64,000 bases of DNA, from the NCBI GenBank assembly GCA_937967405.1, contig CALCJV010000027.1, positions 8,527 through 72,526 on the forward strand, given 5' to 3'. Below the pieces are notes generated by a model. It was not told the DNA's origin, ran no database searches, and saw only the letters and a list, made by a program, of their open reading frames with translations. Position numbers and translations under genes: made by a program. The DNA is from an uncultured Chloroflexales bacterium. Lineage in GTDB: Bacteria > Chloroflexota > Chloroflexia > Chloroflexales > Chloroflexaceae. Shown one piece after another: positions 3,020 to 39,104 of the stretch (its first letter is position 1; each line of letters opens with the position of its first letter).

Positions 3020-3454
3020 GTGGACAGAGACGCAAAGTTGCTCGTATCCGTTTCGTTGCAGGTATCGGGCTTGTCGGTACTGTATGCAGGTGGGCTGAGT
3101 TGGCTCGAACGCCAATTTCCCCTCATCAAGCCCGATCACATTTGGGCCGAGGTTGCAGGTGGGGTCTTAATCACCCTTGTGCCTGTTGCCCTCACGGCGC
3201 GGCGGCTTACCTCCCAGCCCGATAGCAACCTCTCGTGGCGTGATTATGAGGCCGCAGTCTGGTGTGCGTTCGGGGCCTCAGGTGTGCCCATCATCTTGTG
3301 GCAGTTGGGTGAGACGCTTGTGCGACGGGCGGAGCTGCTGCAGTATGCCGCGTATCGCTTGCCAGACCGTGAGGATGAGGAGGACACGGAGTACCTAAGC
3401 CTGCATGGCAAGGTTCACATCCTGAAGCAATACCTACTATCTATCGCAGGTTAG
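3020..3454 (+). CDS. hypothetical membrane protein
   Basis: GTG start 3020 preceded by AAGGAGA (3008-3014). Hydrophobic segments: LLVSVSLQVSGLSVLYAGGL, VAGGVLITLVPVALTA, AAVWCAFGASGVPIILW. Acidic C-terminal tail. Confidence 0.55.
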   Translation: MDRDAKLLVSVSLQVSGLSVLYAGGLSWLERQFPLIKPDHIWAEVAGGVLITLVPVALTARRLTSQPDSNLSWRDYEAAVWCAFGASGVPIILWQLGETLVRRAELLQYAAYRLPDREDEEDTEYLSLHGKVHILKQYLLSIAG

Positions 3455-3829: not shown

Positions 3830-4011
3830 CCGGAGCCGTTGCGCTGCATAGCACGCGGCAATTTGTCGTTATTCGGTTGCTTGCCCAAACGCGGATAACC
3901 GCACGCTGAAGAACTAAAGCCTGCACACACTGTCTGTGGCTCTCTGGTGGGATCGCTTGTTCTCACCGCTGGGCCTGCGTGTGCCCCAAACCTGAACAAG
4001 GAGCTAAACTG

Positions 4012-4260
4012 ATGTATCAGACCCTACGAGCGATTCTGCATGTTGGACGAGTTGCCCCCACCGGCAGTGCGCGGGTTGCCCGCCAACGGCTGCACGCGGT
4101 TGTGCGCCAAGCCCACACGGCTCCGCCGCCTGTGCCGCCTGTGCCGCTCCAACCACTGCCCGCTTCCGATACCGCGTTGTTGCGGCGGTTGCTGAGCCAA
4201 GAGTGTGCCCCGCCCGCCGCTTCCGAGTATGGCTATGCCGCATCTTGCCACAATGCGTAA
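4012..4260 (+). CDS. possible 82-aa leader ORF overlapping the NACHT gene start
   Basis: A good AAGGAG (3998-4003) lies 8 nt before ATG 4012. Stop TAA 4258-4260 overlaps ATG 4253 of the next frame. The product is Arg/Ala/Pro-rich and matches no family. It could be a real coupled ORF or a GC-frame artefact. Confidence 0.3.
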   Translation: MYQTLRAILHVGRVAPTGSARVARQRLHAVVRQAHTAPPPVPPVPLQPLPASDTALLRRLLSQECAPPAASEYGYAASCHNA

Positions 4261-7200
4261 TCCGTTGCGCCGCAAGCGCGGTGCGCCCGCCGCGCAGCCG
4301 CTTAGCCACGCGCTCCAGCAGAGCTTCGCCGTAAGTGGAGCCACGCTGTTAGAACAGCTCGCGCATGTGCCAGAGCAGGCCAGCTTCTTTGCCTTGCACC
4401 GCTACGCCGAGCGGCTCGTCGCCTTGCGTGATCAGCCGCCTAGCCCTGTATGGGAGCGGGCGGTGCAACAGGCGTGGGAGCAGACCACCCGCGATCCGCA
4501 CGCGCAGTCGTTGGGAGCGGCCCTGCACCTGCTCCTCAGTAGCCCGCAGCCAGTGGTGGCCCAGTTGCGTGGCATGCTGATTGCAGAGTATTTCTTTCGC
4601 AGCCAGCCGGATCGGGGGCGACTGCTCGACGCTTACCGCCACGAGGTACGGCAGCAGCACCCAGAGCTACCAGCGTGGACAATCCTTGAACCAGCGTTGC
4701 GCCACTTTTGGCAGGTGGCTCTGCGGCACGCCTTGAGTGAGCAGCGGGAGCTACGCTGGCTCTTGCTGGATCGGCGTGAGCAAGCTCTTGTTGAGCAACT
4801 CGGCTCGCCAAGCATGGAGAATGACCATGCGGCGGCACAGGCAACGCGCCTGCTGCACGCCCTGACGCACCTGCCCACACAAGCGATTGCCGCGAGCGAG
4901 GGCAGTACTATCACGCACGCCAGCCTCCAGCAAACCTTCGTGCTGGGTGCAACCGGTGCGCTCCCCGCACCTGACCTTGCGCGGCTCTACCACCGCTACC
5001 AGAGCTTCATCCTTGAGACCTTTGGCGCACTTGATTTTCGCGGCATTCTCCAGATGAAAAATGTCGTGCGCCTGCGCCTCGAAGATGTCTACATCCCTCT
5101 CTATGCCCGCCGTGTGGTGCGCGTCGGTGGTAGCCCGTCTAGCCCCACTCCGCCCCGCAAGCAGCGTCGCTGGCGCATCCCCGGCGAGGAGGATATGCAT
5201 GCTCCGGCTCCGTTGCATCAGTTCATCCGCGATCACGCCATGTTGGTGGTGCTAGGCGATCCCGGTTCGGGCAAAAGCACGCTGGTGCGTGCCTTGCTGC
5301 TGGCACTGGCAAGCGGGCGGGGCTATGCCGAATTTGGGCTGCACGATGCGTGGCTGCCCATCTTCTTCCCCGTCGCGGCCTTTGCGGATGCCCGCAGCCG
5401 CACTGGGGGGCACAGCCTTGCCCCCCTCGACTACCTCACCAGCTACTACACCGGCTTATCGCAGCCGGACTATGCGCCGCTCTTTCTGCGTGCACTGCAT
5501 GCCGGGCGGGCACTGGTGCTATTTGATGGCCTCGATGAGGTGCGCGGGGATCGGCTGGGCTTGGTGCGCTGCCTCGAAGCCTTGATCCGCGAGTGGGACG
5601 GGCCCGGCAATCGCTTCATTGCAACCAGCCGGATTGCTGGCTATGATGATGCCCCGCTTGATCCAGACCTCTTTGCCTGTGTTGCGCTGCAAGAACTCGA
5701 CGATAATGCGATCCGCCTGTTTATCAGCCGCTGGAGTAGTGCCTTTGAGCGAGCAGGAACCCAGCATCGGCTCAGCGATGCCCAGATTGCCGAACTGGAG
5801 CTGCAACGCCGTGTGGACATACGTACCCGCGACTTGACGGCAGCGGTCTTTACCAATGCCAATGTCACCACGCTGGCACGCAATCCGTTGCTGCTCACAA
5901 TCCTTGCCCTGATCCATCATCAAGGCGCAAGCCTGCCAGATCGCCGCGTAGACCTCTATCAGGTATGTGTACAAGCCTTGGCAGAGACGTGGCATCGGGC
6001 GCGTTCGCTCTCTGGGCGCGAAGTAGACCTGTATCTTGGCAACGAAAAGCTCGATGAGCGGTTCGTCGTCAATCTGCTGGGCCCTACGGCATTATGGATG
6101 CAAGAACATCGCCCCGGTGGCTTGGTCGAGCGTGATGAGCTTGAACAAACCCTCGCCCAAACCCTGATCCAGACTGACGGCTTGCCGCCGGGCCGCGCTC
6201 GCCGCACCGCACAGAGCTTCGTTGATCTGATGCACTACGAGACGGGGCTGCTGCAAGAGCGCGGACATCGGCGATACGGCTTTATGCACCTGACATTTGA
6301 AGAGTACCTTGCAGCGCGGGCCCTGCTCGAATCGGTGGTGGTTGCTAATCCGGATGCCATCATCCACGAACGCTGCGTAGACCCGCGCTGGCGTGAAGTC
6401 CTGCGCCTGACGGTGGCGGCGGCTTCACAGCGCGAGGCGCAACACTTAATCCTGCATATGCTCGCTGCACCCACAACGCCCGCAACAGCTGGACGACCCG
6501 TCGTGCTTGCAGGTGAGTGTTTGCTCGATATTGGGCGCAACAGTGCCACCCAGCAGGCATGGCTCGCCGTGCGCGAACAGCTTGTGGCGTTGTTAGCGGA
6601 TGCCCAGATTCCCCTTGCAACGCGCCTCGCGGGGGGCTTGGTCTTAGGGCGGCTTGGCGATCCGCGCCTGCTTGATATTCGGACGGGCACATCTACAACG
6701 GGTACGTATTGGTATGCGGTTCCTACAATGCCTGCCTGTCAAATTGCCAGACTGCCCGTTACCAACGCTGAGTTTGGGCTGTTTATGGCGGGGCAAGGCT
6801 ACCAACAGCAGGGATGGTGGACGGCACACGGGTGGCAGTTTGTGCAAAATCCTGCCCACGCCGAGCCACTCGTGCAGCCGAGCCACTGGACACACGCTGC
6901 CTTTGCCGCCCCCAATCAGCCTGTGGTGGGGGTGTCGTGGTATGAAGCGGCCGCCTACTGCGCGTGGCTTACTGATCAGGGGCGGCGGGCGGGTTGGCTT
7001 GCGCCAACGGCGACACTCCGCCTGCCCACATCGGCCGAATGGCATGCCGCCGCAACCCACGGTAGCGGCCGCCCCTATGTGTGGGGGGATGCACCGCCTA
7101 CTCCCGAACATGCAAACTACGATGCGACCGCTGTGCATGCCCCAACTGCCGTTGGCTGCTTTCCGCTGGGGCAAGCTGCGTGTGGTGCGCTCGATCTGGC

Positions 7201-7456
7201 GGGCAATGTGTGGGAGTGGACGTGTACCCTGTATCGCCCCACCCCCAACGATAGCCCAGAGCTATCGCCACAGGCTGATTTCGCCCCCGATCAGCAGCCG
7301 ATCATTCGTGGGGGGGCCTTCAACTGGAGCCACGAGTATTTGCACAATCAGCAGTACTACTGGTTTAGTGCCGCCCAACGCCGCAACCTTGTCGGCTTTC
7401 GGCTGGTGCGGGTAGATCATGCTGATGTGTCCACAGACGATCACAAAGGAGCTTGA
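4205..7456 (+). CDS. NACHT-family STAND NTPase with a C-terminal FGE/SUMF1-like (cysteine-less) domain
   Basis: Walker A VVLGDPGSGKST (about 5250-5282). Walker B LVLFDGLDEV (about 5514-5543). Pre-P-loop LDFRGI..LEDVYIPL context. C-terminal FGE-sulfatase signatures: VTNAEF, GVSWYEAAAYCAWL, RLPTSAEWHAAA, GNVWEWT, RGGAF, VGFRLV. Start is ambiguous (GTG 4205, ATG 4229, 4235 or 4253). Confidence 0.85.
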   Translation: MPRPPLPSMAMPHLATMRNPLRRKRGAPAAQPLSHALQQSFAVSGATLLEQLAHVPEQASFFALHRYAERLVALRDQPPSPVWERAVQQAWEQTTRDPHAQSLGAALHLLLSSPQPVVAQLRGMLIAEYFFRSQPDRGRLLDAYRHEVRQQHPELPAWTILEPALRHFWQVALRHALSEQRELRWLLLDRREQALVEQLGSPSMENDHAAAQATRLLHALTHLPTQAIAASEGSTITHASLQQTFVLGATGALPAPDLARLYHRYQSFILETFGALDFRGILQMKNVVRLRLEDVYIPLYARRVVRVGGSPSSPTPPRKQRRWRIPGEEDMHAPAPLHQFIRDHAMLVVLGDPGSGKSTLVRALLLALASGRGYAEFGLHDAWLPIFFPVAAFADARSRTGGHSLAPLDYLTSYYTGLSQPDYAPLFLRALHAGRALVLFDGLDEVRGDRLGLVRCLEALIREWDGPGNRFIATSRIAGYDDAPLDPDLFACVALQELDDNAIRLFISRWSSAFERAGTQHRLSDAQIAELELQRRVDIRTRDLTAAVFTNANVTTLARNPLLLTILALIHHQGASLPDRRVDLYQVCVQALAETWHRARSLSGREVDLYLGNEKLDERFVVNLLGPTALWMQEHRPGGLVERDELEQTLAQTLIQTDGLPPGRARRTAQSFVDLMHYETGLLQERGHRRYGFMHLTFEEYLAARALLESVVVANPDAIIHERCVDPRWREVLRLTVAAASQREAQHLILHMLAAPTTPATAGRPVVLAGECLLDIGRNSATQQAWLAVREQLVALLADAQIPLATRLAGGLVLGRLGDPRLLDIRTGTSTTGTYWYAVPTMPACQIARLPVTNAEFGLFMAGQGYQQQGWWTAHGWQFVQNPAHAEPLVQPSHWTHAAFAAPNQPVVGVSWYEAAAYCAWLTDQGRRAGWLAPTATLRLPTSAEWHAAATHGSGRPYVWGDAPPTPEHANYDATAVHAPTAVGCFPLGQAACGALDLAGNVWEWTCTLYRPTPNDSPELSPQADFAPDQQPIIRGGAFNWSHEYLHNQQYYWFSAAQRRNLVGFRLVRVDHADVSTDDHKGA

Positions 7457-7459
7457 GCG

Positions 7460-8872
7460 ATGCCGCCGGTAGATTTGAGCCTGACATTTCTCGCGCATGC
7501 AGATGCACCAACCACCCTCCTGCGTTGGGAGTCGCCCGTCATTGGCGTGCGCCAGAGCCACTTCACCCCGCCCTTTACACCCACCGTGCTTGCATTGGTG
7601 TTGCGAGCACTTGACCAAAGCCAGACAAGCCGTACCGCGCTTGGGGTCTTTACGTCGGCCGAGCAGCAGCACCTCGCGCAGCTAGGGCTGTGGCAGGCTG
7701 AAGCAGACGGGGGCGGCTTGCCCGCCGATCTGGCGGTGCGCGTGGGGCAACATCTGTTCCGCGCTGTGACGGCCGATCCGCAGGCGGCGATGGCGTTGGC
7801 GAGCGTGCGCGACTACGCGAGCCACATGAATCTGCCACTTGCGCTGCACCTACGCTTCCCACCGCGTGCGGTTGATTTGGCGGCACTGCCGTGGGAGACG
7901 CTCAGCGATCAGGATGGCATTGCGCTATTGTTAGGGCACGGGCGGGCGGCAGCATGCACCCGCTACCTCGATCTGGAGCGTGCGCTCCCGCCTCCGCCCG
8001 TGCGAAGGCTGCCGTTGCGAGTGCTGGTGATTAGCCCGCACGCGGGTATCCCGACTGCCACACGCATTGCCGAACAACACGTGCGCTGGCAGGCGTGGGA
8101 GCCGCTGCTCAAAAGCAGGCGCATCGTGGTGCATGAGATCAGCCCAGCTACCCGTGAGCAACTGCTCCATGCGCTGAGTATCTTCCCCGCGCCGGATATT
8201 GTGCACTACTATGGGCACGGGCGGTATCAGGATGGCAAAGCGGCATTGCTGCTCGATGCTCCCGATGGCGGCGAGGATTGGCTAGGGGTGCAGGCTTGTG
8301 CCGCGCTGCTGGGGCAGGTGCGGCTGCTGGTGCTGTTCGCTTGTCAGGGGGCCAGCCTGAATCCGGCTCACAACATGCTCAGCAGCCTTGCGCCTGCGCT
8401 CAGTGCGGCGGGTGTGCAGGCGGTGCTGGCCATGCAGGTTGCTGTGCGGGTGCATGCCGCCACCCGTGCAAGCAGTGTGCTGTACCGTGCGCTGGCGAGT
8501 GGCTGGAGCATGCAGCAGGCCACGGCATTGGTGCGCCAAACGCTGTACATCCACGAGCCGGATCAGGCTTCGTGGTATGTGCCGGTGCTGTATGTGCGGG
8601 CAAGTACGCCACAGCCCGTCTATCTTTTGCCGCCCGCCCCCGCTGCGGCGAATGCTGAAACGCACGCGCCAGCTATGCTGGATACGCCCGATGCGCCTCC
8701 TACCCCTGCCCCTGCGGCCTCGCGCCCAATTCGTTGGCAAGCCCCGCGCCAGCAGATCATTGCCCGCCAGCGCAGCCAAATCGCGGGCGTGCGCCTGACG
8801 GCCAGCGGTGTGGCTGAGCAACTGGTCGAGGCGAGCGACAACAGCCAGATCAGCGATGTGCAGGCGCAGTAG
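7460..8872 (+). CDS. CHAT-domain (caspase-like) protease
   Basis: ATG 7460 lies 3 nt after the NACHT stop, with AAAGGAG at 7445-7451. His-Cys dyad motifs: VHYYGHG (His codon 8216-8218) and LVLFACQGAS (Cys codon 8342-8344). Confidence 0.85.
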   Translation: MPPVDLSLTFLAHADAPTTLLRWESPVIGVRQSHFTPPFTPTVLALVLRALDQSQTSRTALGVFTSAEQQHLAQLGLWQAEADGGGLPADLAVRVGQHLFRAVTADPQAAMALASVRDYASHMNLPLALHLRFPPRAVDLAALPWETLSDQDGIALLLGHGRAAACTRYLDLERALPPPPVRRLPLRVLVISPHAGIPTATRIAEQHVRWQAWEPLLKSRRIVVHEISPATREQLLHALSIFPAPDIVHYYGHGRYQDGKAALLLDAPDGGEDWLGVQACAALLGQVRLLVLFACQGASLNPAHNMLSSLAPALSAAGVQAVLAMQVAVRVHAATRASSVLYRALASGWSMQQATALVRQTLYIHEPDQASWYVPVLYVRASTPQPVYLLPPAPAAANAETHAPAMLDTPDAPPTPAPAASRPIRWQAPRQQIIARQRSQIAGVRLTASGVAEQLVEASDNSQISDVQAQ

Positions 8873-8874
8873 CC

Positions 8875-9138
8875 ATGCCCGCCATAGTACGCGCTCTATG
8901 GGGCTATCTCACGCTCAATGCCACCCTGCTGATGCTGGCGGCGGCCGGCTTGCATGGCGGCGAGCTGTGGTGGCTCGCTACAGGTGGCTGCCTTGCACTG
9001 ATCGGCTGGCGGGTGGGGTGGTTTACGGCCCGCTATCAGCCAGAGCCGCGCCCAGTGATCGTGTATATCGTGGTGGTGGATGCCGCCCAAGAATGTGAAT
9101 TCCACAGGCAATCGGCCCACGACGGTGAGCCGAGCTAA
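8875..9138 (+). CDS. small 2-TM membrane protein (holin-like topology)
   Basis: ATG 8875 lies 2 nt after the CHAT stop. Two hydrophobic helices: LWGYLTLNATLLMLAAAGL and LWWLATGGCLALIGWRVGWF. Short charged tail. Confidence 0.55.
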   Translation: MPAIVRALWGYLTLNATLLMLAAAGLHGGELWWLATGGCLALIGWRVGWFTARYQPEPRPVIVYIVVVDAAQECEFHRQSAHDGEPS

Positions 9139-9155
9139 GCAACAGGAGCTAAGGA

Positions 9156-11048
9156 ATGACAACGAGCGAACAGAGCCAGACCTACGCGATCCGACAGGTT
9201 GGCATGACTCGTCAGCACTTTCAGATCGGGGATGCCGCCCGCATTCGCATGATTGTACTGCATGCTACCGCCGGATCGTATCCCGGCGATTACGAATGGC
9301 TGCGGCAGGGTGGCAGCGCAAGCGCACCCGTCTCAATTCATTACTACATTGACAAGCAAGGCAACATCAGCCAGATGGTCGCTGATGCTAACATTGCGTG
9401 GCACGCGGGCGAGAGTACGTGGATCGTAGATGGGCAGCAGATTAACTACGCGCATGGCTGTAATGCTGTCTCAGTCGGGATTGAGCTAGAGAATTGGAAC
9501 AACGGTAGCGACCCCTACCCCCCAGCGCAGGTGGATGCCGCCGTGTGGCTGACGCGCCAACTAGTGCAGACCTATGCCATTCCGCGCAACCAACTAGTGC
9601 GCCACCTTGATATTGCCCCCGCTCGCAAGACTGATCCGCGAGGCTTTGCGTGGGCGCAATTTGTTGAGGATGTGTATCATCCGCTTGAGCCGGAAGCCAC
9701 CCCCGCCGAACAGCTGGCCCGGCTGCGGGCGCGGTTGGTAGATTTTGCCTATCGCACGGCGGGGAGTGCCGCCCCTGATGGCTGGACCTTGCTGCGGGGC
9801 AGCATCTCGCGCAATACGGGCATGCCGGTGCGGGCGATCACGCCCCCCGCGCAGGCCAAGCAGCCGGCCGATGCAAATGCACGAGCGGTGCGCCTTGCTG
9901 GGCAAGCATTGGTGGTGGAAGCCTACGGGCGGGACTTGTTGTATGCCCCGCCGGATAACCTGTTGCAGATCCGCCAACTCAGTCAGACCAAAGGCGGTAC
10001 ACTCCGCACGGCATTACTGGAAGCCCTGTTCCGCGCCGTTGATCCCGTCTCTGGCTTCCGCCCCGATTGGGCCTTTCATCAGTATTACCTCGAACACGCC
10101 GCCGCGCTCGGTGTGCCGATCACGCCCAACTATCGCCTTGCCCGCCACACCCGTGATGGCATGGCGTATGTGGTGCAGCATTTCGCGCTGGATAGCCTGT
10201 GCGCTCCGGTCAAGAACTGGCGGCAGATTACGCGCCTCAGCAGCTTAACTGAGGCCATGTATGCGGGTGATCCGCACGATACTGCCGCCCGTGAGCTACG
10301 CAGCCTATTGCTCAATGACCTGTATCAACAGCGCACGGGCACTGCCTTCGATGCCACGGCCCTCTTCTGCCGCTATGCCATTCAGCACCAGCTTGGTGCG
10401 CCGCTTGGCCCAGCCGAACTCTTCAGCTTCAATGGGCGGCGGATGGTGGCGATGCCATTTGCATTGGATGTGATCTACTGCCACATTCCCGCCGATGCCA
10501 ATTGGGAAGGGGTGACCGTCAATGCCATGCCCCCAATGTTGGGGAGCACCACGCCACCGGAAATTGGGCGGCTGAGTGTGTTACTGCATGAAGCGGCGCA
10601 GCCCACGCTCGCTCCAGAGCTGCCCGCCCTGATCCCACCGCCCTACGCTGGACATCTGCTCGGTGCGCCCGTGCAGCAGGTGCTTGAGCGCGACCTCTCG
10701 CTGCATACACCCCTCGATCCACAACTGAGTGCCTTGCCGCCGGTTGCCCCGCAACGGCTGCTGCTGGTGCCTGCGCCGCCACTCGATGCGACTGAGCAGC
10801 CCGAACAACATTGGCATGCCTATCTGGATCGGCAGGGGGTGTTCACGCGCTTCAGCAACCTCGCCCAGCCCACCCCGCTCACCAATGGTAGCGGCTATGC
10901 CATACCGCTTGTGGTGCTGGGTGTGGAGGGTGGTACGCAGAATATGCCGCCGGCCCAACGGCGGGCATTGCTGTGCATTCTGCGCGATGTGCCGCCGCTT
11001 ATCGGCCTAAGCCAAAACCATATCTATCTTGCCCATCGCCAACAATAG
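9156..11048 (+). CDS. N-acetylmuramoyl-L-alanine amidase (Amidase_2/PGRP fold) with a long C-terminal extension
   Basis: AGGAG (9144-9148) precedes ATG 9156. Motifs: MIVLHATAG, IAWHAGES, NAVSVGIELEN, VRHLDIAPARKTDP (T7-lysozyme-type Zn amidase). No signal peptide. About 450 aa of extra sequence with two LG-x-P...F-x-LD repeats. Confidence 0.8.
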   Translation: MTTSEQSQTYAIRQVGMTRQHFQIGDAARIRMIVLHATAGSYPGDYEWLRQGGSASAPVSIHYYIDKQGNISQMVADANIAWHAGESTWIVDGQQINYAHGCNAVSVGIELENWNNGSDPYPPAQVDAAVWLTRQLVQTYAIPRNQLVRHLDIAPARKTDPRGFAWAQFVEDVYHPLEPEATPAEQLARLRARLVDFAYRTAGSAAPDGWTLLRGSISRNTGMPVRAITPPAQAKQPADANARAVRLAGQALVVEAYGRDLLYAPPDNLLQIRQLSQTKGGTLRTALLEALFRAVDPVSGFRPDWAFHQYYLEHAAALGVPITPNYRLARHTRDGMAYVVQHFALDSLCAPVKNWRQITRLSSLTEAMYAGDPHDTAARELRSLLLNDLYQQRTGTAFDATALFCRYAIQHQLGAPLGPAELFSFNGRRMVAMPFALDVIYCHIPADANWEGVTVNAMPPMLGSTTPPEIGRLSVLLHEAAQPTLAPELPALIPPPYAGHLLGAPVQQVLERDLSLHTPLDPQLSALPPVAPQRLLLVPAPPLDATEQPEQHWHAYLDRQGVFTRFSNLAQPTPLTNGSGYAIPLVVLGVEGGTQNMPPAQRRALLCILRDVPPLIGLSQNHIYLAHRQQ

Positions 11049-11171
11049 TAACAATGATCAGGATGACACGCGAGCCACGCCACGTTGCTTGGGGCTATTG
11101 ATCTCAGCCCGATGGGGTTGCTAAGCCGTGATCGTTAGTGCCGGATACTTGTCATATATGGAGACTATGCC

Positions 11172-11651
11172 ATGACGATGATTGAGTCCTATCACGTCGC
11201 CACACCGCTCCCCGCCGTGTGCGAGCTGCCGCTGCTGCACGGTACGCACGCAAGTAGCCTGTGCCCCGATGCCCGCTTGAATGTGCCGCCGTGCTTTCGC
11301 GCCGCCTTCGCTGAAGGGGCGATCCTAACCTGTGGGTATGAGGGCTGCTTGTACCTCTTGCCGCCCGCAAGCTGGCAGAGCTTGGTGCGGCAAGCCCGCA
11401 CTATCGCCCCCTCCAGCGAACAGGGTCGCTTGCAGCGGCGGCGAGTATTTGCCAGCGCATTGGCGGTAGCTCTTGATGCGGACGGGAACTTTACCCCCCC
11501 GCCAGATCTGCTCGCCTATGCAGGCATCCGTGCGCGGGTGATCTTTGCTGGGGTAGATAGCTACATCGAGCTGTGGGCGGCCCATCGTTGGCTGAGTATG
11601 CGCGATCAGCTGGCCCGCAGCGCATACCGCACCATGCACACTCAGCCCTGA
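11172..11651 (+). CDS. MraZ-like (tandem SpoVT/AbrB-type) protein, not in a dcw context
   Basis: Collinear by eye with B. subtilis and E. coli MraZ: G....PDARLNVPPCFR...ILTCGYEGCLYLLPPASW...RRRVFASALAVALDADGNFTPPPDLLAYAGIRARVIFAGVDSYIELWAAHRW. The two DxxGR motifs are degenerate (PDARL, DADGN). Start uncertain (ATG 11172 or GTG 11217). Confidence 0.6.
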   Translation: MTMIESYHVATPLPAVCELPLLHGTHASSLCPDARLNVPPCFRAAFAEGAILTCGYEGCLYLLPPASWQSLVRQARTIAPSSEQGRLQRRRVFASALAVALDADGNFTPPPDLLAYAGIRARVIFAGVDSYIELWAAHRWLSMRDQLARSAYRTMHTQP

Positions 11652-11695
11652 CACCCACCACCCGATCCCTGATACCCATCGAAAGGAGACCTTGT

Positions 11696-12814
11696 ATGCC
11701 AATCGCCCCCCCGCCTCTGCACGAACGCAGCCACGCTCTGCTGAGTCGTGTCTGGGCCCAGCCCAACCAGCCGCCGCTCCTGCTAGCGATCCCGCCGGAG
11801 CGCGTGGATGATGGCGATGCCGCTACGCCCGCGCCGCCACAGTTCCAGCCCCACCGGCACTACTTCCAAGTGCGGGTGAATGAGATGTATCTCTCGCAGC
11901 GACGTGAATGGTTTACCACCTATGATCCCCTCGTGTTTGCCGTGACCGAGTTCATCTACCATCGGCGGCACGTCGCGCTCCCATTCGTGGTCGGTCCCAC
12001 GATGCTTGAAGCGTATGGACGGCAGTTGCCACTGGGCATGCTCTTCACTAATACGCGCATCGCTGGCCCTTATCCCTATCGCGGTGGGCGCATTGCCCTA
12101 GCGATTGTGCTGTATCGGGTGCGCCGCGACAATGCCATCCGCAATGTGCTGCGCCTCCTCGAACGAGTGGCGGGTGTCGTGGATGTGGCCGGCATGGTAC
12201 ATACGTATATCAAATTAGCGGATGTTTTACTCGATGGCATGGAGACGCTGCTAAGTGCTGATGCCACCGAGCCGCGTATTGGCGTGCGGATCGAGCTTGA
12301 TCCGGCCGCAACGGGTGAGATTCGCCCCGGCTACTACGTGCTGCTCGAACCACACGCCACGCAGATCAATCCGGCGCACTTGCGCGTGCGTGAGCAGCAG
12401 CTCTGGTATGGTACCGATGCAGTTAGTGCGGAACCATTCCGTAGCAGCGATTATGTTTTGTATAGCTTGATGCAGACCAGCGAACGGAGTGATCTGACGA
12501 CGCTGGCATTCTATCCCCTGTATGAACAAGTTCTCGCGGCGGCCATTCACCCCGATGCCGAGAACTGGAAGCGAGCGCGGATCAACCTGCTCACGCTGAT
12601 CCAGAATATCGAACTCAGCCCAGATTTGACGAGCGCACAAGCCCGCGCCCTCAGCCGCCACTACACCGAGCGCGTATTACAGGCCCACCATCACGCCACC
12701 CAAATCGGTACACTCGGTAGCCGCGCCGTTGCCCACCAGCAGCGCAGCCGCCCCGACCTATCAGCCCAAGCCCAGCAACGCTGGCATGAATTAGCCCGCT
12801 ATCTGGAGCTGTAA
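11696..12814 (+). CDS. hypothetical protein
   Basis: The ORF track gives 11573-12814, but AAAGGAGA (11682-11689) precedes ATG 11696 and the upstream part overlaps the MraZ-like gene. No motif recognised. Confidence 0.55.
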
Positions 12815-12966
12815 GGCAACGCACTGCACCCCATACACCAAATGCCTGTGGTATACTGATCTTGTCACGAGGAGTGAGGGGATGCAGTATGCCGCTGCGT
12901 GGAGGCATGCCTGCGATGCCCCTGTGCCACTTGACCCTGCTAGCCCCTGCCGTGTATGAGAGGAGC

Positions 12967-15501
12967 ATGCCTGTGAAAGCTGTCATTATGGCTGGAGGCG
13001 AAGGAACCCGCCTACGCCCAATCACGATCAATCGTCCCAAGCCAATGGTAGCAGTGGTGGATCGGCAAGCCATCCACCACATCATTGAGCTATTGAAGCT
13101 GCACGGGATCACTGATATTATTATCACCGTGCAATACCTCGCCAGTACGATTCAAGATTACTACAGTGATGGCAGCAACTACGGCGTGAATATCACCTAC
13201 TCGGTCGAGACCTCGCCGCTCGGCACGGCGGGCAGTGTGCGCCACGCCATGCACTTACTGGATGAGCCGTTCCTCGTGATTTCGGGAGATGCTCTGACTG
13301 ACATTGATCTGACCCGCGTGATTGAACACCACCGCCGCACTGCCGCCCATGCGACCTTGACCTTGACCCGGGTGCCTAATCCATTGGACTATGGCGTGGT
13401 GATTACCGATGACAATGGCTATGTGCAGCACTTTCTGGAGAAACCAAGCTGGGGTGAGGTCTTTTCCGATACGGTCAATACCGGCATTTACGTGATTGAT
13501 CCGAGCGTGTTTGAGTACATTGAGCCAGACATGATGGTAGACTGGTCGCGGGATGTCTTCCCGCGCATGCTGCGCGATGGGCAGCGTATTATGGGCTACG
13601 TCGCTGAAGGCTACTGGACGGATATTGGCAATATCGAGGAGTACATGCGGGCTTGTGGGGACTATCTGGCGGGCAAGCTGCGCTTGCCGCGCGTGGGGCA
13701 GCGCGTGGGCGGTGGGCTGTGGCTGCAAGCGGATGCCGACATTGCGGCCGATGCCCAACTGCACGGCGATATTTTTCTGGGGCACGGGGTCAAAATCCGC
13801 TCTGGGGTGAGCATTCACGGGCCTACGTTCATCCGCCCGTACACGATTATAGATAGCCACGCCCGCATTGACCGTTCGTGCGTCTGGCGCAATTCGTACA
13901 TCGGTGAGCGTTCGCAGTTGCACGGTGCGATTGTGTTGCGTCAGTGCGACATCCGCAGCCAAGTGCGCCTATTTGAAGGGGTAGTGGTGGGTGATGGGGT
14001 GCAGATTGGCACCGGCGCGGTGCTGCAACCAAACGTCAAGATTTGGCCGAGTAAAGAGGTAGACGAAGGCGCAACCGTCTCGACGAGCCTGATCTGGGGC
14101 AATCAGGCGCGGCGCGTCTTGTTTGGGCGGCACGGCATTAGCGGCATGGTCAACATCGAGATCACGCCCGAATTCTGTGCGCGGCTAGGGGCGGCGTTTG
14201 GGGCGGTGTTGCCCCGCGGCTCAACCGTTACGATCAACCGTGACCCGCACTACACCCCGCGTATGCTCAAGCGGGCGTTGATCGCGGGCTTGCCCTCCAC
14301 TGGGGTGCATGTCACTGATCTGCAATCCGTACCGATTCCGGTGGCCCGCTATTACACCCACGCAAGCCAAGCGGCAGGTGGGGTGCATGTGCGCCTCTCT
14401 CCCTACGATAACCGCATGGCTGAGATTAAGTTCTTCGACCCGCGTGGGCTGAATATCAATACCAGCTTGCAACGCAAGATCGAGAGTGTCTTTTTCCGCG
14501 AGGATTTTCGCCGCGCCTACCTCGACGAGATTGGGCGCATCACCTACGGCACGGGCGTGGGCGATACCTACATGAAAGCCTTTCTTGGCGCAATCCAGCC
14601 CGATATTATTCAGCAGGTGGTCGGACGACCACCAGATATAGCCGGCACGCAGCACCCTTTGCTTGTGGTAGATTATGCCCACGCCAACGGCAGTGACATC
14701 TTCCCCAAGATTCTGCGTCGCCTCAAGATAGATGTGGTTGAGCTGAATGCCAACCTCGACGAGAACCGCATTGTCCAATCCACCGCCGATTTCGAAGCCG
14801 GCATGCACCGCTTGATGCAGATTGTACCGGTGCTGGATGCGAGCTTTGGCATCCGTATTGATGCGAATGGTGAACGGATCTTCATCGTAGATGATCGCGG
14901 TGATCGCATCAATAGCATGAATGCGCTGGTGGTGGTGGCGTGGCTCGCCTTTCGCGCCCACGGCGGCGGCAGCATTGCCGTGCCCGTGACGGCACCGCGG
15001 GTGTTCGAAGTGCTGGCGGATCAGTACGGTTGCCGCGTAATCCGTACCAAAAGCTCGCTCAGCGAGATGATGCAAATGGCGGCGGAACACCCCGATTTGC
15101 TCCTGCTTGGCGATGGGATTGGTGGCTACATCTTCCCGTCCTTCCACCCGATCTTCGATGGGCTGTTTGCTACGATCAAGATTATCGAGCTGCTGGCCCT
15201 GAATCAGGTGCGGCTGAGTGAGGTACTGAAGCAGACCCCTCCCTACCACTTGGCCCAGACCAAAGTGCCCTGCCGGTGGGACAGCAAGGGTAAGGTGATG
15301 CGGGTGTTGAACGAACGCTACTACCACCGTAGCCCCACCCAACTCGATGGGATTCGGATCGAGATGGGCGAGCGTGATTGGGTGCTGATCTTGCCTGATC
15401 CCGATAGCCCGTTCTTCCACATCTACGCCGAAAGTAGCAACGATGAACTTGCTCGTGAGCTTGCTGAACAGTATGCTGCTGAGGTTGCCTATTTGCAATA
15501 G
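12967..15501 (+). CDS. sugar-1-phosphate nucleotidyltransferase fused to left-handed beta-helix and PGM/PMM-like domains
   Basis: GAGAGGAG precedes ATG 12967. [17 protein letters not shown] signature of NTP-transferases. Hexapeptide-repeat region in the middle. C-terminal four-domain phosphohexomutase-like region with divergent active-site loops (RLSPYDN, IDANGER). Confidence 0.8.
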
Positions 15502-15575: not shown

Positions 15576-17621
15576 ATGCAAGGACAGGTAGCCCTACTTC
15601 ACAGCGGACAGCAGGTTGGCGATTTTGTGATCGAGGCTGAGCAGGGGCGCGGCGGCATGGCTGTCGTCTATCGGGCCCAGCAGGTGTCGCTCAAACGCAC
15701 GGTAGCATTGAAGCTGATGCTGCCCCAGATTAGCATTGATCCACAAGCAGTGGTGCGCTTTCAGCAGGAAGCCCAACACGCTGCCCGCCTCAGCCATCCA
15801 CATATCGTCACGATCTATGGCACGGGTGAACTGATGCTGCCCAATGGCTTGACTGTGCCCTATATTGCGATGCAGTATGTGGCTGGGGCGACGCTGCGGG
15901 AACTGATCCAGCACGAGCCAGTTTCGCTTGAGCAGGCAACGACGATCCTTACCCAAGTAGCGCAAGCCCTTGATTATGCCCACTCGTATGGGATGATCCA
16001 CCGCGACATTAAGCCCTCGAATATCCTTCTCAGCACAACAGGCGTTGCCTATTTGACTGATTTTGGGCTAGCTACGGCGATTGGTAGTGGCCGCGGGCTA
16101 ACCCGTTCGGGCATGGTCATTGGCACACCAGAGTATATGGCTCCTGAGCAAGCCGAAGGGCGCGGGCAGATTGGTACGACCGCCGATGTGTATGCCCTCG
16201 GCTTGGTGCTGTATGAGATGCTCACCGGGAAACTTCCGTTCGAGGCGGATACGCCGATGGGGATAATGCTAGCGCGGCTGCTGCACCCGCCGCGTGACCT
16301 GCACGAATTGCGCCCCGATCTGCCCCCTGCCCTTGCCACCGTGATCCAGACGGCCCTTGCCCGCGATCCCGCCCAACGCTACCCAACGGCGGGTGCACTA
16401 GCTGCTGCGCTGCATGCGCTTGAGCCTAGCGCAGCGGGCAATGCGAGCAACGATGCTCCGACGGTCGTTGTCGCCCCTGTAGCTGCCCATTCCCCCCCCC
16501 TCGCGGCAACCCCCGTGATTGGTGCAACGGTGAGCATGCCCAATGAACACATGCCCCTCGTGGCCACGCCGGCCCCCCCACTGTTGCCAGCCCAACCAGA
16601 CTCCGCTGCGGTGCAGACCTCAGCGCATAGCCGCTCCCGCACAAGCAATACGCTGCTCGGCTATGGCTTGATCGGCTTGGGCGGGGTAGCGTTGCTGCTT
16701 GTGTTGTTGATGCGGATCAACCCCCTTGTCGTGCGGGTGGCAAGTCCGCTACTGCTGGGCATAGGTACTTTTTTGAGCATCATTGTGATTGTGCAGAGCC
16801 TGAGTCAGCGTGGGCGGGCAGGAGCTGAGCACCACGTGCAGCGCACGCGCCTGCTTGGCGTAATTGGGGTCGGGCTGGTGTTACTGGGCGGACTGAGTGC
16901 AAACCAATTTATGCCGCAGATAGCACCCGATTCGGGCGTGACTAGCCCCCCGCCAGCTTTGTCCTATCCCGTACCTGTGCTTGCTGAGGGGGCAATTCCA
17001 CGCAGTGCTTATGACGAATCATCGCTGAGTATCTACTTTACCTATGCACGTGGAGCGTTAGAGCAAGGCAACTATAGCGCAGCGAGGGATTGGCTCGAGC
17101 CGCTACTTGAATCGGCTTCGTCGAATGCACAACTCCATACCCTGTTGGGGCACAGCTATGTGCTTGAGGCGAGTGCTATGCCCACCGGAAGTGCTGAACG
17201 TGCTCAAGCAGCGCAAAATGCAGTCGAAGCCTACATGCAAGTGCATCAAGGCAGTGCCGAACTGGAAGCTGGGCTAGGCTGGGCGTATCGCTATCTGGGC
17301 AACTTCCGCGAGGCGCGGGCCCATTTTGAATCCGCCCTCAATTTCGAGGATAAGTATGAGCCAGCCCTTTCGGGCTTGGCGTGGACGCTGTATGACAGTG
17401 CTGAGTATCAGCGGGCCGCCGATCTGTTTGAAGAAGCCCTCGATGAACTTGACGACACGACTGATCCATCCGCTAAGGAGCTGTATCTGGGCTTGGCGCA
17501 ATCGCTCGAGATGGTGCAAGACTACGATGAGGCAATTGAGGCGTATGAAAAGGCTCTGGAGTTTGATCGTGACAATGATTTGATCCTGTCAGCGATTGAG
17601 CGGCTGAAACAGTTCCGCTAG
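15576..17621 (+). CDS. Ser/Thr protein kinase with TM segments and C-terminal TPR repeats
   Basis: AAGGAGG RBS. Hanks kinase motifs: HRDIKPSNILL, DFGLA, GTPEYMAPE. Pro/Ala linker, hydrophobic segments, and a TPR-like C-terminus (..GLGWAYRYLGNFREARAHFESALNF..). Confidence 0.9.
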   Translation: MQGQVALLHSGQQVGDFVIEAEQGRGGMAVVYRAQQVSLKRTVALKLMLPQISIDPQAVVRFQQEAQHAARLSHPHIVTIYGTGELMLPNGLTVPYIAMQYVAGATLRELIQHEPVSLEQATTILTQVAQALDYAHSYGMIHRDIKPSNILLSTTGVAYLTDFGLATAIGSGRGLTRSGMVIGTPEYMAPEQAEGRGQIGTTADVYALGLVLYEMLTGKLPFEADTPMGIMLARLLHPPRDLHELRPDLPPALATVIQTALARDPAQRYPTAGALAAALHALEPSAAGNASNDAPTVVVAPVAAHSPPLAATPVIGATVSMPNEHMPLVATPAPPLLPAQPDSAAVQTSAHSRSRTSNTLLGYGLIGLGGVALLLVLLMRINPLVVRVASPLLLGIGTFLSIIVIVQSLSQRGRAGAEHHVQRTRLLGVIGVGLVLLGGLSANQFMPQIAPDSGVTSPPPALSYPVPVLAEGAIPRSAYDESSLSIYFTYARGALEQGNYSAARDWLEPLLESASSNAQLHTLLGHSYVLEASAMPTGSAERAQAAQNAVEAYMQVHQGSAELEAGLGWAYRYLGNFREARAHFESALNFEDKYEPALSGLAWTLYDSAEYQRAADLFEEALDELDDTTDPSAKELYLGLAQSLEMVQDYDEAIEAYEKALEFDRDNDLILSAIERLKQFR

Positions 17622-21689: not shown

Positions 21690-22484
21690 ATGCCTATCCC
21701 GCAACCGATCCGCACGCTATTATTCGATATGGATGGGGTGCTTTATCGTGGGCAGACGATCCTGCCCGGTGTGGCCGAGGTGATCGCCTACTGTCAGCAG
21801 CACGATCTGCCGTTTGCCACGATCACCAACAATGCCACCCGCACGCGCCAGCAGTATGAGCAGAAGCTCCACGCTATGGGCTTAGCGGTGCGGGGTGAGC
21901 AGGTATTGACCTCGGCCATTATCACCAATGCGTGGCTCCGCAGGCACTATCCAACAGGGACACGAGTGCTTGCGATTGGTATGCGCGGTCTCACCGATGA
22001 ACTGTTTGGCGATGGCTACTTTGTCTCTGATGAGGAACAGCCGCAGCTGGTGGTGCAAGGGGCCGATTTTGAGCTGACCTACGAACGGCTCAAGCGCGGC
22101 TGTCTCGCCATTCGGGCGGGCGCACGCTACATCCTCACCAACCCGGATCGCACCTTCCCGACGGAGATTGGGCTAGTGCCCGGCGCAGGGGCGATCAGTG
22201 CTGCGTTGGTAGCTGCCACCGGCGTAGAGCCGACTGTGCTCGGCAAGCCCCAGCCAGCCATGTTTCACACGGCACTGCACATGCTCGGTGGCGATCCGGC
22301 CACGACGCTTGTCGTTGGGGATCGGCTTGATACCGATATTGCCGGCGCACGCAACGCCGGATTGCCGTGTGCGCTTGTATTGACGGGCGTGACTACGCCG
22401 GATGAGCTTGCGGCTAGCCCACTTCAGCCTGACCTTGTGCTGCACGACCTGACTGAACTGTACGCTGTATTGCAGCATCAGTAG
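21690..22484 (+). CDS. HAD-IIA family hydrolase (NagD-like)
   Basis: LFDMDGVLYRG (DxDG nucleophile motif), TNN, GKP, VGDRLDTDI. Confidence 0.8.
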   Translation: MPIPQPIRTLLFDMDGVLYRGQTILPGVAEVIAYCQQHDLPFATITNNATRTRQQYEQKLHAMGLAVRGEQVLTSAIITNAWLRRHYPTGTRVLAIGMRGLTDELFGDGYFVSDEEQPQLVVQGADFELTYERLKRGCLAIRAGARYILTNPDRTFPTEIGLVPGAGAISAALVAATGVEPTVLGKPQPAMFHTALHMLGGDPATTLVVGDRLDTDIAGARNAGLPCALVLTGVTTPDELAASPLQPDLVLHDLTELYAVLQHQ

Positions 22485-22500
22485 GCATGTAGGTGATTGG

Positions 22501-23412
22501 GTGCGTATGCTGTTCTTGATTGTCTACGACCAGCAGCAGGTTACGCTCCTCGTGCGCGATTGGTCTGCGGATAAGCTTTATCAGGCGTTGCAGCACGGGC
22601 AGTTTGGGGCCGCGTTACCACCGCCCGACCGGCGCGTCCTTGTGGCATTGCTCGTGGATTGGCAACGGCGGGCCCTCGGACAGGTTATGCTGCGCGATGC
22701 CATGTTGGTTGATCAGCGGCGTGGGGCGCAAGTCTACCGTTTGCTGTGCTACAGCCAGATTCGCGCCGCACAGCCGATTCCTGAGCTTGCCGCGCACCTG
22801 TTTACGCCGGGTGAGCCGCAGCCTGATCTGGCTCAGCTGCACGCCCAGCTCATTGCGCTAGCGGCTGCGCCAGCGTGCCCACCGCCTACTTGTGCCGAGC
22901 TGCACCACCTCGCCGATGTCGTCTTGCTGGCCCAGCAGCCGGGCATGGTGCTGCACTGTGTTACTACCGATGCTGATGGGCAGCCGCAGCCGATCCAACT
23001 GTCGCTTCCCGATAACCTGCTTGATCTGTTGCCCACCCAGCCCCCTACATTGATGCAAACCCCTGTGCCGCGCTTCGAGCCGCCGACGGGCTGGCGGCGC
23101 AACATCTCGGTTATGCTGGCGGTGTCCGGCGTAATCTGGTTGCTGTTGCCGCTGATGTTCGGGCAGATTCCGGTGCGTCCGGCAGGCGTTCCGCTCGGCT
23201 TGGTGACACTGGCTCTGCTGATCGGGGTGCAAGCCCAGTGGCGCGGCTATGTTGGCTCGGTGTGCCTGTGGCTCGTGCCCAATCTGCCGTGGTTTCATCA
23301 CGGCGAACGGTTTGACTGGCTGCGTACCCTGCCGTTCCTGCTGCTCGGCCTGCTGCTAATCAGCCTCGATCAACCCATCCGTGCCCTGTGGCGTTGGCTC
23401 TGGCGGGGCTAG
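22501..23412 (+). CDS. hypothetical membrane protein
   Basis: Soluble N-terminal part of about 190 aa, then 3-4 hydrophobic helices (ISVMLAVSGVIWLLLPLMF, LGLVTLALLIGV, LPFLLLGLLLISL). No family recognised. Confidence 0.5.
   Translation: MRMLFLIVYDQQQVTLLVRDWSADKLYQALQHGQFGAALPPPDRRVLVALLVDWQRRALGQVMLRDAMLVDQRRGAQVYRLLCYSQIRAAQPIPELAAHLFTPGEPQPDLAQLHAQLIALAAAPACPPPTCAELHHLADVVLLAQQPGMVLHCVTTDADGQPQPIQLSLPDNLLDLLPTQPPTLMQTPVPRFEPPTGWRRNISVMLAVSGVIWLLLPLMFGQIPVRPAGVPLGLVTLALLIGVQAQWRGYVGSVCLWLVPNLPWFHHGERFDWLRTLPFLLLGLLLISLDQPIRALWRWLWRG

Positions 23413-39027: not shown

Positions 39028-39104
<77 letters not shown>

Follow-up and report, generated by a model that had tools for sequence, protein, structure and literature searches.

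A gasdermin-less CHAT/NACHT-FGE gene cluster of Chloroflexales, interleaved with division and cell-wall genes, as a candidate regulated lysis module

The window analysed here, a stretch of 64,000 nucleotides (nt) from an uncultured Chloroflexales bacterium, carries on its forward strand a cluster of co-directional genes (4012-12814). They encode a MinE-like small protein, a NACHT NTPase ending in a domain with the fold of the formylglycine-generating enzyme (FGE), a CHAT caspase-like protease, an 87-residue hydrophobic protein, an amidase, a MraZ family regulator and an uncharacterised 372-residue protein, designated unk372. The best explanation of this arrangement, to which we give an even chance, is a regulated, pyroptosis-like lysis module that forms the gasdermin-less variant of a CHAT/NLR-like (NOD-like receptor-like) cluster of the Chloroflexales. 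In such a module the FGE-like domain would bind a ligand, the NACHT module would then switch or oligomerise, and this switch would license the adjacent CHAT protease. CHAT would cleave the executioner encoded at the cluster end, a gasdermin in 14 of 20 related lineages and unk372 in the window's clade. The signal-less amidase, with a small hydrophobic open reading frame (ORF) before it in a holin/endolysin-like layout, would breach the wall, and the predicted outcome is regulated cell lysis. We infer every activation step, the substrate of CHAT in the window, the lytic outcome and the biological trigger. Gasdermin and NLR-protease cell-death systems are already known as a kind; what is new is a cluster of this type embedded in division and cell-wall genes, with gasdermin replaced by an uncharacterised, protease-neighbouring family.

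Related loci were obtained from genome look-ups and from a metagenome scan with a clade-specific CHAT alignment, and were scored with hidden Markov models (HMMs) of our own. Clustering at 95% CHAT identity yielded 20 non-redundant Chloroflexales lineages with the amidase after CHAT, and these share the conserved block (MraZ)–MinE-like–[NACHT-FGE]–CHAT–amidase–FtsZ–effector slot. NACHT-FGE, FtsZ and a gasdermin in the slot occur together in eight lineages, while six have FtsZ and the gasdermin without NACHT-FGE. Three lineages combine NACHT-FGE and FtsZ with unk372 in the slot, two (the window and its closest relative) have NACHT-FGE and unk372 with no FtsZ, and in one lineage with NACHT-FGE and FtsZ the contig is cut off ahead of the slot. 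A gasdermin fills the slot in 14 lineages (22 loci) and unk372 in five (5 loci), and no lineage has both. The gasdermins of the orthologous loci match PADLOC bGSDM with E-values from 1e-69 to 1e-77 and NCBIfam prok_gasdermin with 178.7 bits (cut-off 100). Homologues of unk372 follow FtsZ in loci L141 and L142, which is the exact place of gasdermin in sister clades. Within the cluster MraZ has moved, FtsZ has been lost, the slot has been swapped, the two-transmembrane (2-TM) ORF has been gained and NACHT-FGE has been gained or lost, and the CHAT–amidase–slot association is kept despite this reshuffled gene order. The invariant partners of CHAT are the amidase, usually FtsZ, and a terminal slot with gasdermin or unk372.

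The protease gene (7460-8872, + strand) encodes a CHAT caspase-like protease of the gasdermin-associated clade. Pfam CHAT (PF12770) is matched with an E-value of 9.8e-20 (71.6 bits, cut-off 24). The PADLOC model 'chat' (PDLC02988), whose accession is close to that of bGSDM, matches the window CHAT with an E-value of 1.2e-40 and a Chloroflexus orthologue, nearly end to end, with 1.7e-103. The His/Cys dyad proposed in an earlier note on this DNA is intact, with H253 (8216-8218) invariant and C295 (8342-8344) kept in at least 90% of sequences. Orthologues that are 41-54% identical to the window CHAT share their cluster with curated gasdermins. Johnson et al. (2022) showed that bacterial gasdermins are activated via cleavage by a neighbouring caspase-like or CHAT protease and that NACHT or repeat sensors are part of some gasdermin-linked proteases; the paper makes no mention of amidase, FtsZ or Chloroflexi. 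Because of the 'chat' match and these CHAT-cleaved gasdermins, the window CHAT is assigned by sequence to the gasdermin-protease kind, though the window itself has no gasdermin. The likeness to gasdermin-CHAT systems lies in the 'chat' match, the intact dyad, the orthologues in gasdermin loci and the associated NACHT sensor. The differences are that the window lacks a gasdermin, that the orthologous gasdermins are separated from CHAT by the amidase and FtsZ, that NACHT, as the sensor, has a gene of its own and an FGE-type C-terminus, and that the locus is a conserved housekeeping and division locus, not a sporadic one.

Immediately upstream lies the gene of the NACHT-FGE NLR-like protein (4235-7456, + strand), which matches Pfam NACHT and FGE-sulfatase and has a ratio of non-synonymous to synonymous substitution rates (dN/dS) of 0.09, computed like all such ratios here against one relative with proteins about 79-95% identical. 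The reading frame is open from GTG 4205, from which residues are numbered. The earlier note had placed the start at 4205 or 4253; the overlap with the upstream ORF that it described stands, but ATG 4235 is the most likely start in view of homology with P0121, and the gene then overlaps the upstream ORF by 26 nt, like its counterpart in the closest relative. The NACHT module (residues 347-512, 5243-5740) matches PF05729 with an E-value of 4.6e-13 (49.8 bits, cut-off 26.7) and contains Walker A GDPGSGKST and Walker B LVLFDGLDEV. The canonical character noted earlier for these motifs is borne out by the invariance of G351, P353, G354, G356, K357, T359, D441, D444 and E445 in 25 homologues. In total, 921 NACHT-FGE homologues were found at E-values of 1e-5 or below. 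An all-helical N-terminal domain (residues ~27-200, 4283-4804) occupies the position of NLR effectors or adaptors and is modelled by AlphaFold2 (AF2) with a predicted local distance difference test (pLDDT) score above 92; a Foldseek search of the model found no fold match in the PDB (best E-value 0.32, TM-score below 0.25), and Pfam assigns the domain to no known family. Mean pairwise identity among orthologues is lowest in the N-terminus (36%), followed by FGE (57%) and NACHT (67%). In PADLOC the NACHT-FGE protein yields matches at the level of the P-loop only (mad8, PtuA and mad3, E-values of 5e-4 or above) and no bNACHT model, and NCBIfam EruA reaches 20.9 bits on it against a cut-off of 1000. 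An adaptor of the effector-associated domain (EAD), CARD or Death type shared between NACHT-FGE and CHAT was considered and rejected after BLASTP, Pfam and the fold search; Pfam detects no EAD in the cluster proteins, and MoxR/vWA genes are likewise not in the cluster. As a side observation, an 11.3-Mb genome (L086:7978-13282 and 21899-23282) holds a 53%-identical NACHT-FGE paralogue without CHAT or amidase, adjoining two further NACHT genes and an IS21-type transposase pair, as would be expected if NLR-like genes had expanded in this lineage apart from the conserved cluster.

The C-terminal domain (residues 838-1069, 6716-7411) has the FGE-sulfatase/C-type-lectin-like fold and matches PF03781 with an E-value of 6.7e-39 (134.5 bits, cut-off 23.3). 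With PF05729 and PF12770, all three domain identities given in the earlier note exceed their Pfam cut-offs. Human FGE, whose motif KGGSYMCHRSYC is identical to PDB 2aii and 1y1e, served as the reference for the catalytic cysteines; its C336 and C341 correspond to W1041 (7325-7327) and L1046 (7340-7342) in the window, and none of 25 homologues has cysteine at these positions. The description of the domain as cysteine-less is right for the catalytic pair but not for the domain as a whole, which keeps five cysteines, C1007 being the last in the protein. Because the catalytic pair is missing, the domain is non-catalytic and not a formylglycine-generating enzyme, in agreement with the earlier reading of the fold as more likely a sensor than an enzyme. 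Its nearest solved relatives are the EgtB C-lobe, ToxD and PorK, with true FGEs far lower in the ranking. The EgtB profile aligns with its C-terminal lobe only (positions 203-412 of 413, 92.6 bits, cut-off 360), and Pfam finds in NACHT-FGE no DinB-like iron-binding domain, which EgtB-type enzymes need. A ligand-binding sensor is a reasonable inference for the role of this domain. Diversification by a diversity-generating retroelement (DGR) was considered and rejected: a sensitive blastn search of the 64-kb window found no repeat of 6650-7456 that could serve as template, no reverse transcriptase is present among the scanned ORFs, and the domain is conserved among orthologues.

NACHT proteins of this make-up have been described before. 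Kibby et al. (2023) list NACHT followed by a C-terminal 'FGS' domain as one of two architectures of the antigen-receptor type in bacterial NACHT proteins, Kaur et al. (2020) discuss FGS domains among the modules of conflict systems, a 2026 survey of STAND proteins places STANDs with FGE-type sensors among defence-associated clades, and Doré et al. (2024) report NACHT-CLec proteins beside peptidases as DGR targets in multicellular bacteria. Like these proteins, which are overrepresented among multicellular bacteria and have peptidase partners close by, the window protein consists of an N-terminal domain, NACHT and a C-terminal FGE/C-type-lectin fold; unlike them, its FGE domain is conserved and not hypervariable, and it comes without a DGR template repeat in the window, an EAD or a bNACHT match. 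The NACHT-FGS architecture is thus already known in silico, while its division-cluster context has not previously been described. The label 'uncharacterised' given to the system in the earlier note holds insofar as no experimental test of a NACHT-FGE/CHAT cassette or of an FGE-type sensor turned up in the searchable literature, but the CHAT clade is modelled by PADLOC and the NACHT-FGS architecture has been published in silico.

That NACHT-FGE and CHAT belong together, as the earlier note had proposed, is supported by their adjacency (NACHT-FGE lies immediately upstream of CHAT in 14 of the 20 lineages) and by their fusion elsewhere, since CHAT or caspase is found joined to NACHT or FGE in single polypeptides. 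Four such fusions were confirmed by Pfam: L117, with CHAT and NACHT running into FGE-like sequence at the contig end (CHAT domain E-value 4e-127 with the clade HMM); P0240, with Peptidase_C14, NACHT and FGE; L043, with CHAT and FGE; and L057, with EAD1, CHAT and FGE. In this CHAT clade further members are joined to typical conflict-system domains, such as EAD1, SAVED, TIR and NACHT. The CHAT C-terminal tail (residues ~425-470, 8732-8869) consists of two repeats of about 20 residues, RQQIIARQRSQIAGVRL and EQLVEASDNSQISDVQ. Loci with NACHT-FGE (the window, L001-L003, L084, L088-L097) yield 16 distinct tails, all of this two-repeat form, and the nine distinct tails from NACHT-less amidase-linked loci (L085, L101-L112) are all of a short 'IRRLRIQEEW' form, a correlation between tail and sensor that is confounded by phylogeny and has one counterexample in a similar tail without NACHT-FGE (L113). 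The tail may be a docking or autoinhibitory element, or a mere clade marker.

The slot at the cluster end is occupied in the window by unk372 (11696-12814, + strand, 372 aa, dN/dS 0.06), a member of an uncharacterised family of about 350 residues. Further members lie at L141:14285-15301, L142:12948-14012, L145:601-1653, L147:6992-8080, L149:6860-8026 and L143:349-1476, and a near-identical copy occurs in a metagenome-assembled genome named 'Chloroflexaceae bacterium'. Exhaustive phmmer searches recovered 968 cluster representatives at E-values of 1e-3 or below, 234 of them at 1e-30 or below; nearly all are single-domain proteins of about 350 residues, every source calls them 'hypothetical protein', and none was found among 50,697 phage records. 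In unrelated genomes and plasmids the gene directly adjoins a protease from one of four families that are not related to each other (CHAT, caspase C14, papain C1 and M36). A protease with CHAT and a zinc ribbon is encoded 30 nt downstream of it in L145, a papain-family C1 peptidase immediately upstream on a Sporomusa plasmid, and an M36 metallopeptidase immediately downstream in L143. On a Pseudanabaena plasmid it is flanked by an AAA_35+caspase protein upstream and a caspase downstream, beside a MoxR ATPase. Gasdermins, too, were first recognised as protease-activated effectors by their recurrent association with proteases that are unrelated to one another. Because it pairs with unrelated proteases and exchanges its slot with gasdermin, unk372 is a candidate protease-partnered, protease-activated effector.

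The Pseudanabaena arrangement, with unk372 between caspases and beside MoxR, resembles the MoxR-vWA (VMAP) systems, whose caspases always come with a specific partner gene called an alpha/beta-hydrolase (Kaur et al. 2020). That partner is a hydrolase by description, unlike unk372, which has no hydrolase match in any library; one Bradyrhizobium member of the unk372 family is fused to a DUF900 alpha/beta-hydrolase.

Between CHAT and MraZ the window encodes a small hydrophobic protein and the amidase. The 87-residue product (8875-9138, + strand) has two putative TM segments and is found in the window's sub-clade only. Its ORF is conserved in L001, and an uncalled ORF in L002 can be aligned with it (z = 7.1 against shuffles), while an analogous 82-residue hydrophobic ORF in L141 shows no significant similarity to the window peptide (z = 2.8). 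A small hydrophobic ORF between CHAT and amidase is thus present in four of the five unk372 lineages, window included, with significant similarity to the window peptide in only two of the other three. No 2-TM ORF occurs in L142 or in any gasdermin locus, and in every gasdermin locus the gap between CHAT and amidase is below 45 nt, which leaves no space for it.

The amidase (9156-11048, + strand, 630 aa) is an N-acetylmuramoyl-L-alanine amidase that matches Pfam PF01510 (Amidase_2) with an E-value of 3.1e-32. Its catalytic domain (residues 28-162, 9237-9641) is followed by a C-terminal region of about 450 residues, and the protein has no signal peptide and no TM segment. H36, H150 and D160 are invariant in the alignment; by analogy with AmpD we take them to be the zinc ligands. 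The AF2 model has a pLDDT of 85 and a predicted TM-score (pTM) of 0.88. Foldseek against the PDB aligns the catalytic domain only, with AmpDh2, AmiD and AmpD first, followed by endolysins and peptidoglycan recognition proteins; viral fold matches are multi-domain Lysin A endolysins (TM-score of 0.27 or below), and the ~450-residue C-terminal region has no confident match in either the PDB or the viral fold search. The catalytic domain falls in PHROG lysis families. The amidase directly follows CHAT in 20 of 20 lineages, a sample that was chosen by this very adjacency. A small hydrophobic protein just upstream of a signal-less Amidase_2 hydrolase recalls phage holin-endolysin cassettes, but here there is no holin match, there are no phage genes nearby, the unique ~450-residue C-terminal region is present, and the amidase resembles AmpD/AmiD no less than endolysins.

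The remaining genes of the cluster connect it with division. The first gene (4012-4260, + strand, dN/dS 0.15) encodes an 82-residue small protein that is likely MinE-like. At least 11 distinct loci have kept it, with GSA.IARQRL as its conserved motif; Pfam MinE gives sub-threshold matches (E-values 0.03-0.21) in three of six members of the family. When the family profile was searched against 177,635 PDB sequences, its top three matches, each a different entry, were MinE, over the MinD-contact helix, at weak E-values (0.24-1.2). The MraZ gene (11172-11651, + strand) encodes a divergent member of this regulator family of division and cell-wall clusters, with 59.3 bits to Pfam MraZ (cut-off 23) and scores below the NCBIfam equivalog cut-offs. 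Gasdermin-type loci have it upstream of the cluster, the window's clade downstream. FtsZ is in the cluster of 18 of the 20 lineages and is gone from the window and from L001, where the other genes are kept. In the Oscillochloris locus it is canonical, with an E-value of 1e-101 to B. subtilis FtsZ. As an observation in its own right, the cluster FtsZ proteins (L084:13467-14738, L085:10980-12056, L003:11395-12576, L002:11581-12741) have canonical motifs and are only 34-56% identical between loci, diverging as fast as CHAT. The mur, ftsI and ftsW genes of the division and cell-wall (dcw) cluster are not found in the cluster, either in the window or in the loci that were looked up.

Four ORFs (3979/4012-4260, 4205-7456, 7460-8872 and 8875-9138), all on the + strand, had been described with near-zero junctions, and direct reading bears this out. 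The unit does not end at 9138 as had been assumed: the co-directional cluster runs on to 12814 through the amidase, MraZ and unk372. A Shine-Dalgarno-like (SD-like) AAGGAG (3998-4003) stands 8 nt ahead of ATG 4012 of the MinE-like gene. A second AAGGAG (7446-7451) lies within the end of the NACHT gene, whose TGA (7454-7456) is followed by ATG 7460 of CHAT. The CHAT stop TAG (8870-8872) is followed by ATG 8875 of the 87-residue ORF, whose TAA (9136-9138) precedes AGGAG (9144-9148) and ATG 9156 of the amidase, leaving a gap of 17 nt between these two genes. The element (A)AGGAGCT recurs nearly identically at 3998-4005, 7446-7453 and 9144-9151, before the starts of the MinE-like, CHAT and amidase genes; it is not found ahead of the 2-TM ORF or the NACHT gene, both of which begin inside or just after the previous gene. 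All genes are under purifying selection, with dN/dS of 0.06-0.15, or 0.31 for the 87-residue ORF. The promoter and terminator scan gave counts no better than shuffled sequence, with no clear promoter upstream of 4012, and Rfam found over the window two tRNAs only and no riboswitch or leader by the cluster. These tRNA genes, the sole Rfam matches in the window, are divergently oriented at 39031-39104 (-) and 39252-39323 (+).

The surroundings of the cluster are housekeeping in character, with arginyl-tRNA synthetase, transporters, a nucleotidyl-transferase/phosphohexomutase fusion and a Ser/Thr kinase with TPR repeats, and domain scans of the window ORFs found no defence or mobile genes flanking it. 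PheT and a paralogous pair of 164 and 147 residues upstream, and glycosyltransferases downstream, are common to the Chloroploca and Chloroflexus loci. Because flanking genes are shared between genera and no defence or mobile genes flank the cluster, it bears the signature of a vertically inherited core locus and not of a defence island. The label 'conflict operon' proposed in the earlier note is accordingly not established, given the MinE-like first ORF and the division and cell-wall genes in a housekeeping neighbourhood.

Some further features of the window are recorded here. The two upstream proteins (164 aa, 2296-2790, and ~144-147 aa, 3020-3454) are kept across genera, with counterparts at L003:3314-4181 (-), L141:4059-5506 and L142:3746-4189; the L141 copies show 38% mutual similarity over 47 residues. 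A pair of 164 and 152 residues (L140:12076-13071, -), 31% identical to each other, lies beside a stand-alone amidase; it is like the window pair in size, with no significant sequence similarity to it. Directly downstream of the cluster on the same strand, 12862-15501 encodes an 879-residue fusion of nucleotidyl-transferase, hexapeptide and phosphogluco(manno)mutase modules, followed at 15576-17621, again on the same strand, by a 681-residue Ser/Thr protein kinase with C-terminal TPR repeats; both keep their order in L001 and may share a cell-envelope theme. Farther away are a 1255-residue ORF with two short-chain dehydrogenase modules (25583-29350) and an 1844-residue ORF with AMP-binding, enoyl-CoA hydratase and Zn-alcohol-dehydrogenase modules (29447-34981). 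Their domain make-ups match two enzymes of the 3-hydroxypropionate bi-cycle, malonyl-CoA reductase and propionyl-CoA synthase, and so point to an autotroph of the Chloroflexus type. At 35118-35738 lies the gene of a putative restriction endonuclease of the Uma2 family (PF05685, E-value 1e-33). The G+C fraction is 0.62-0.63 in 4001-12000, against 0.55-0.57 in the 4 kb upstream and 0.58-0.59 in the 6 kb downstream, an excess that may be meaningless, as similar values occur elsewhere in the window.

Several observations weigh against the cluster being a lysis module of the kind proposed. An HMM built from three locus gasdermins, which hits the orthologous loci strongly, found no gasdermin in the 64-kb window, and the protein that takes its slot, unk372, has no match in Pfam, NCBIfam, PADLOC, PHROGs or PDB sequences. 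The possibility that unk372 is a divergent gasdermin was examined and rejected, since the hhalign probability was 0.07%, or 0.17% with deep alignments, the same as for negative controls. The coupling of sensor and protease is affected in that NACHT-FGE is absent from six of the 20 lineages, the N-terminal helical domain of NACHT-FGE is not CARD- or Death-like by Foldseek, and BLASTP detects no domain shared between the NACHT N-terminus and CHAT. For the 87-residue product, the two hydrophobic helices described earlier remain as two putative TM segments, but its hydrophobicity is moderate (best 19-residue Kyte-Doolittle mean 1.46), it matches no holin family and nothing in PHROGs, Pfam or NCBIfam, and its ORF is weakly constrained (dN/dS 0.31) and limited to one sub-clade. 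The amidase is closest to cytoplasmic recycling enzymes of the AmpD type, and its family also occurs without CHAT, FtsZ or gasdermin (L140), for which reasons it may be an older backbone gene of the locus rather than an effector. The synteny evidence itself is confounded by descent, because all loci come from one bacterial order.

These points bear on the alternatives to different degrees. The cluster could be a division and cell-wall remodelling operon that involves no cell death, in which CHAT would act in the manner of HetF, in partnership with the amidase, FtsZ, MraZ and the MinE-like protein, NACHT-FGE would be a regulatory NTPase responding to a signal from the cell wall or from metabolism, and gasdermin or unk372 would be accessory; this we consider unlikely, though credible. 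MraZ and FtsZ bracket the cluster and the MinE-like gene comes first, the Oscillochloris FtsZ is fully canonical, the housekeeping neighbourhood is syntenic between genera, the amidase is AmpD/AmiD-like, and the conservation of FGE (57%, against 67% in the NACHT core) fits a conserved endogenous ligand. A precedent exists in HetF of Anabaena, a septal CHAT membrane protein that binds FtsI and is required for septal peptidoglycan remodelling (Xing et al. 2021). HetF is a CHAT protein of a filamentous multicellular bacterium with a functional tie to FtsZ-dependent division; in the present cluster type a CHAT gene lies between the MraZ/MinE-like and the amidase/FtsZ genes. The sequence similarity is weak, however (NCBIfam HetF, E-value 7.9e-07, 27.7 bits against a cut-off of 1200); HetF is a membrane protein with no gasdermin or NACHT association, while a hydropathy scan predicts no TM segment in the window CHAT. 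The CHAT clade, moreover, is the one that PADLOC models for gasdermin systems, and elsewhere it is fused to EAD1, SAVED, TIR and NACHT. FtsZ has been lost from the window and L001 clusters with the other genes kept, and a bona fide, pore-forming gasdermin that ends the cluster in 14 of 20 lineages is hard to square with a purely constructive role.

The earlier note had seen a self-contained, translationally coupled four-gene anti-phage NLR operon acting by abortive infection, with the 2-TM protein as the CHAT-activated effector, and this now appears decidedly unlikely. The tight junctions and SD sites agree with it, as do the defence-associated clades of FGE-type STANDs, the antigen-receptor architecture of NACHT-FGS proteins and the status of gasdermin/CHAT systems as toxic cell-death modules placed in an anti-phage context (Johnson et al. 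2022; Wein et al. 2023); the 2-TM ORF is also a real gene, conserved in two close relatives and with an analogue in a third. The triad of NACHT-FGE, CHAT and 2-TM protein nevertheless does not hold as a conserved unit, the 2-TM ORF being missing in L142 and the 14 gasdermin lineages, with the small ORF confined to four lineages, and NACHT-FGE being missing in six. The cluster continues into the amidase, MraZ and unk372, its first ORF is MinE-like, no PADLOC bNACHT or defence model fits the NACHT beyond the P-loop, no defence or mobile genes adjoin, and vertical conservation sets the locus apart from typical defence islands. The synteny expected in cyanobacteria and actinobacteria was not found either: among the matches listed, distant NACHT-FGE genes of other phyla (35% identity or less) have none of the cluster's neighbours. 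The same lack of neighbours would suit a cluster that is no functional unit at all, in which NACHT-FGE and CHAT, as a two-gene module or as independent genes, were inserted once into an ancestral division locus and the synteny is merely inherited. The origin of every syntenic locus in one order, the 53%-identical paralogue in another context and the amidase standing alone in L140 beside a pair sized like the window's, with no significant homology, are in keeping with such an insertion. We hold it to be very improbable, as the CHAT–amidase–slot association persists through repeated reshuffling, gasdermin and unk372 are each linked to proteases outside the locus, and the junctions are tight or overlapping with shared SD motifs.

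If the cluster is a regulated lysis module, a domesticated or division-linked cell-death module of multicellular filaments is more likely than a mobile anti-phage island, because the genes are inherited at one fixed housekeeping site, intermingled with MraZ, the MinE-like gene and, among relatives, FtsZ; defence and development both remain candidate functions. LypABC of Caulobacter, an NLR-protease lysis system co-opted for a host programme with a dedicated transcriptional repressor (Banks et al. 2026), offers a precedent that makes such a role plausible. In LypABC and in the type II gasdermin systems (Wein et al. 2023), as would be the case here, an NLR-like ATPase and one or more proteases drive lysis, and the LypABC repressor has a parallel in the MraZ-family regulator of the cluster. 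The proteases differ, with trypsin-like or other peptidases and CARD-like adaptors there and CHAT here.

A bolder joint reading, which we regard as a long shot, takes unk372 as a new class of protease-activated executioner that displaced gasdermin in one clade and pairs with proteases in other phyla, and the whole cluster as a division-coupled programme of lysis in which the FGE domain would sense an endogenous cell-wall ligand. Sacrificial lysis might then, for example, fragment filaments or seal off damaged or infected cells. Sensing of a cell-wall ligand would have a parallel in NOD1 and NOD2, which sense muropeptides.

The animal inflammasome has its bacterial counterparts in gasdermin-protease systems and NLR-like STAND sensors, which have so far been treated as sporadic, mobile anti-phage modules. 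In the cluster described here the same parts are stable and vertically inherited in an order of multicellular filaments, where they are interleaved with division and cell-wall genes. Multicellular prokaryotes may thus have coupled regulated cell death to division or to the upkeep of their filaments, a testable possibility with parallels in the developmental caspases of eukaryotes, in HetF with its divisome role and in the co-opted LypABC. With the cluster, the question of which ligand an FGE-type NLR sensor binds can be put to a defined case, and if unk372 is indeed a new executioner, the repertoire of protease-activated death effectors would grow.

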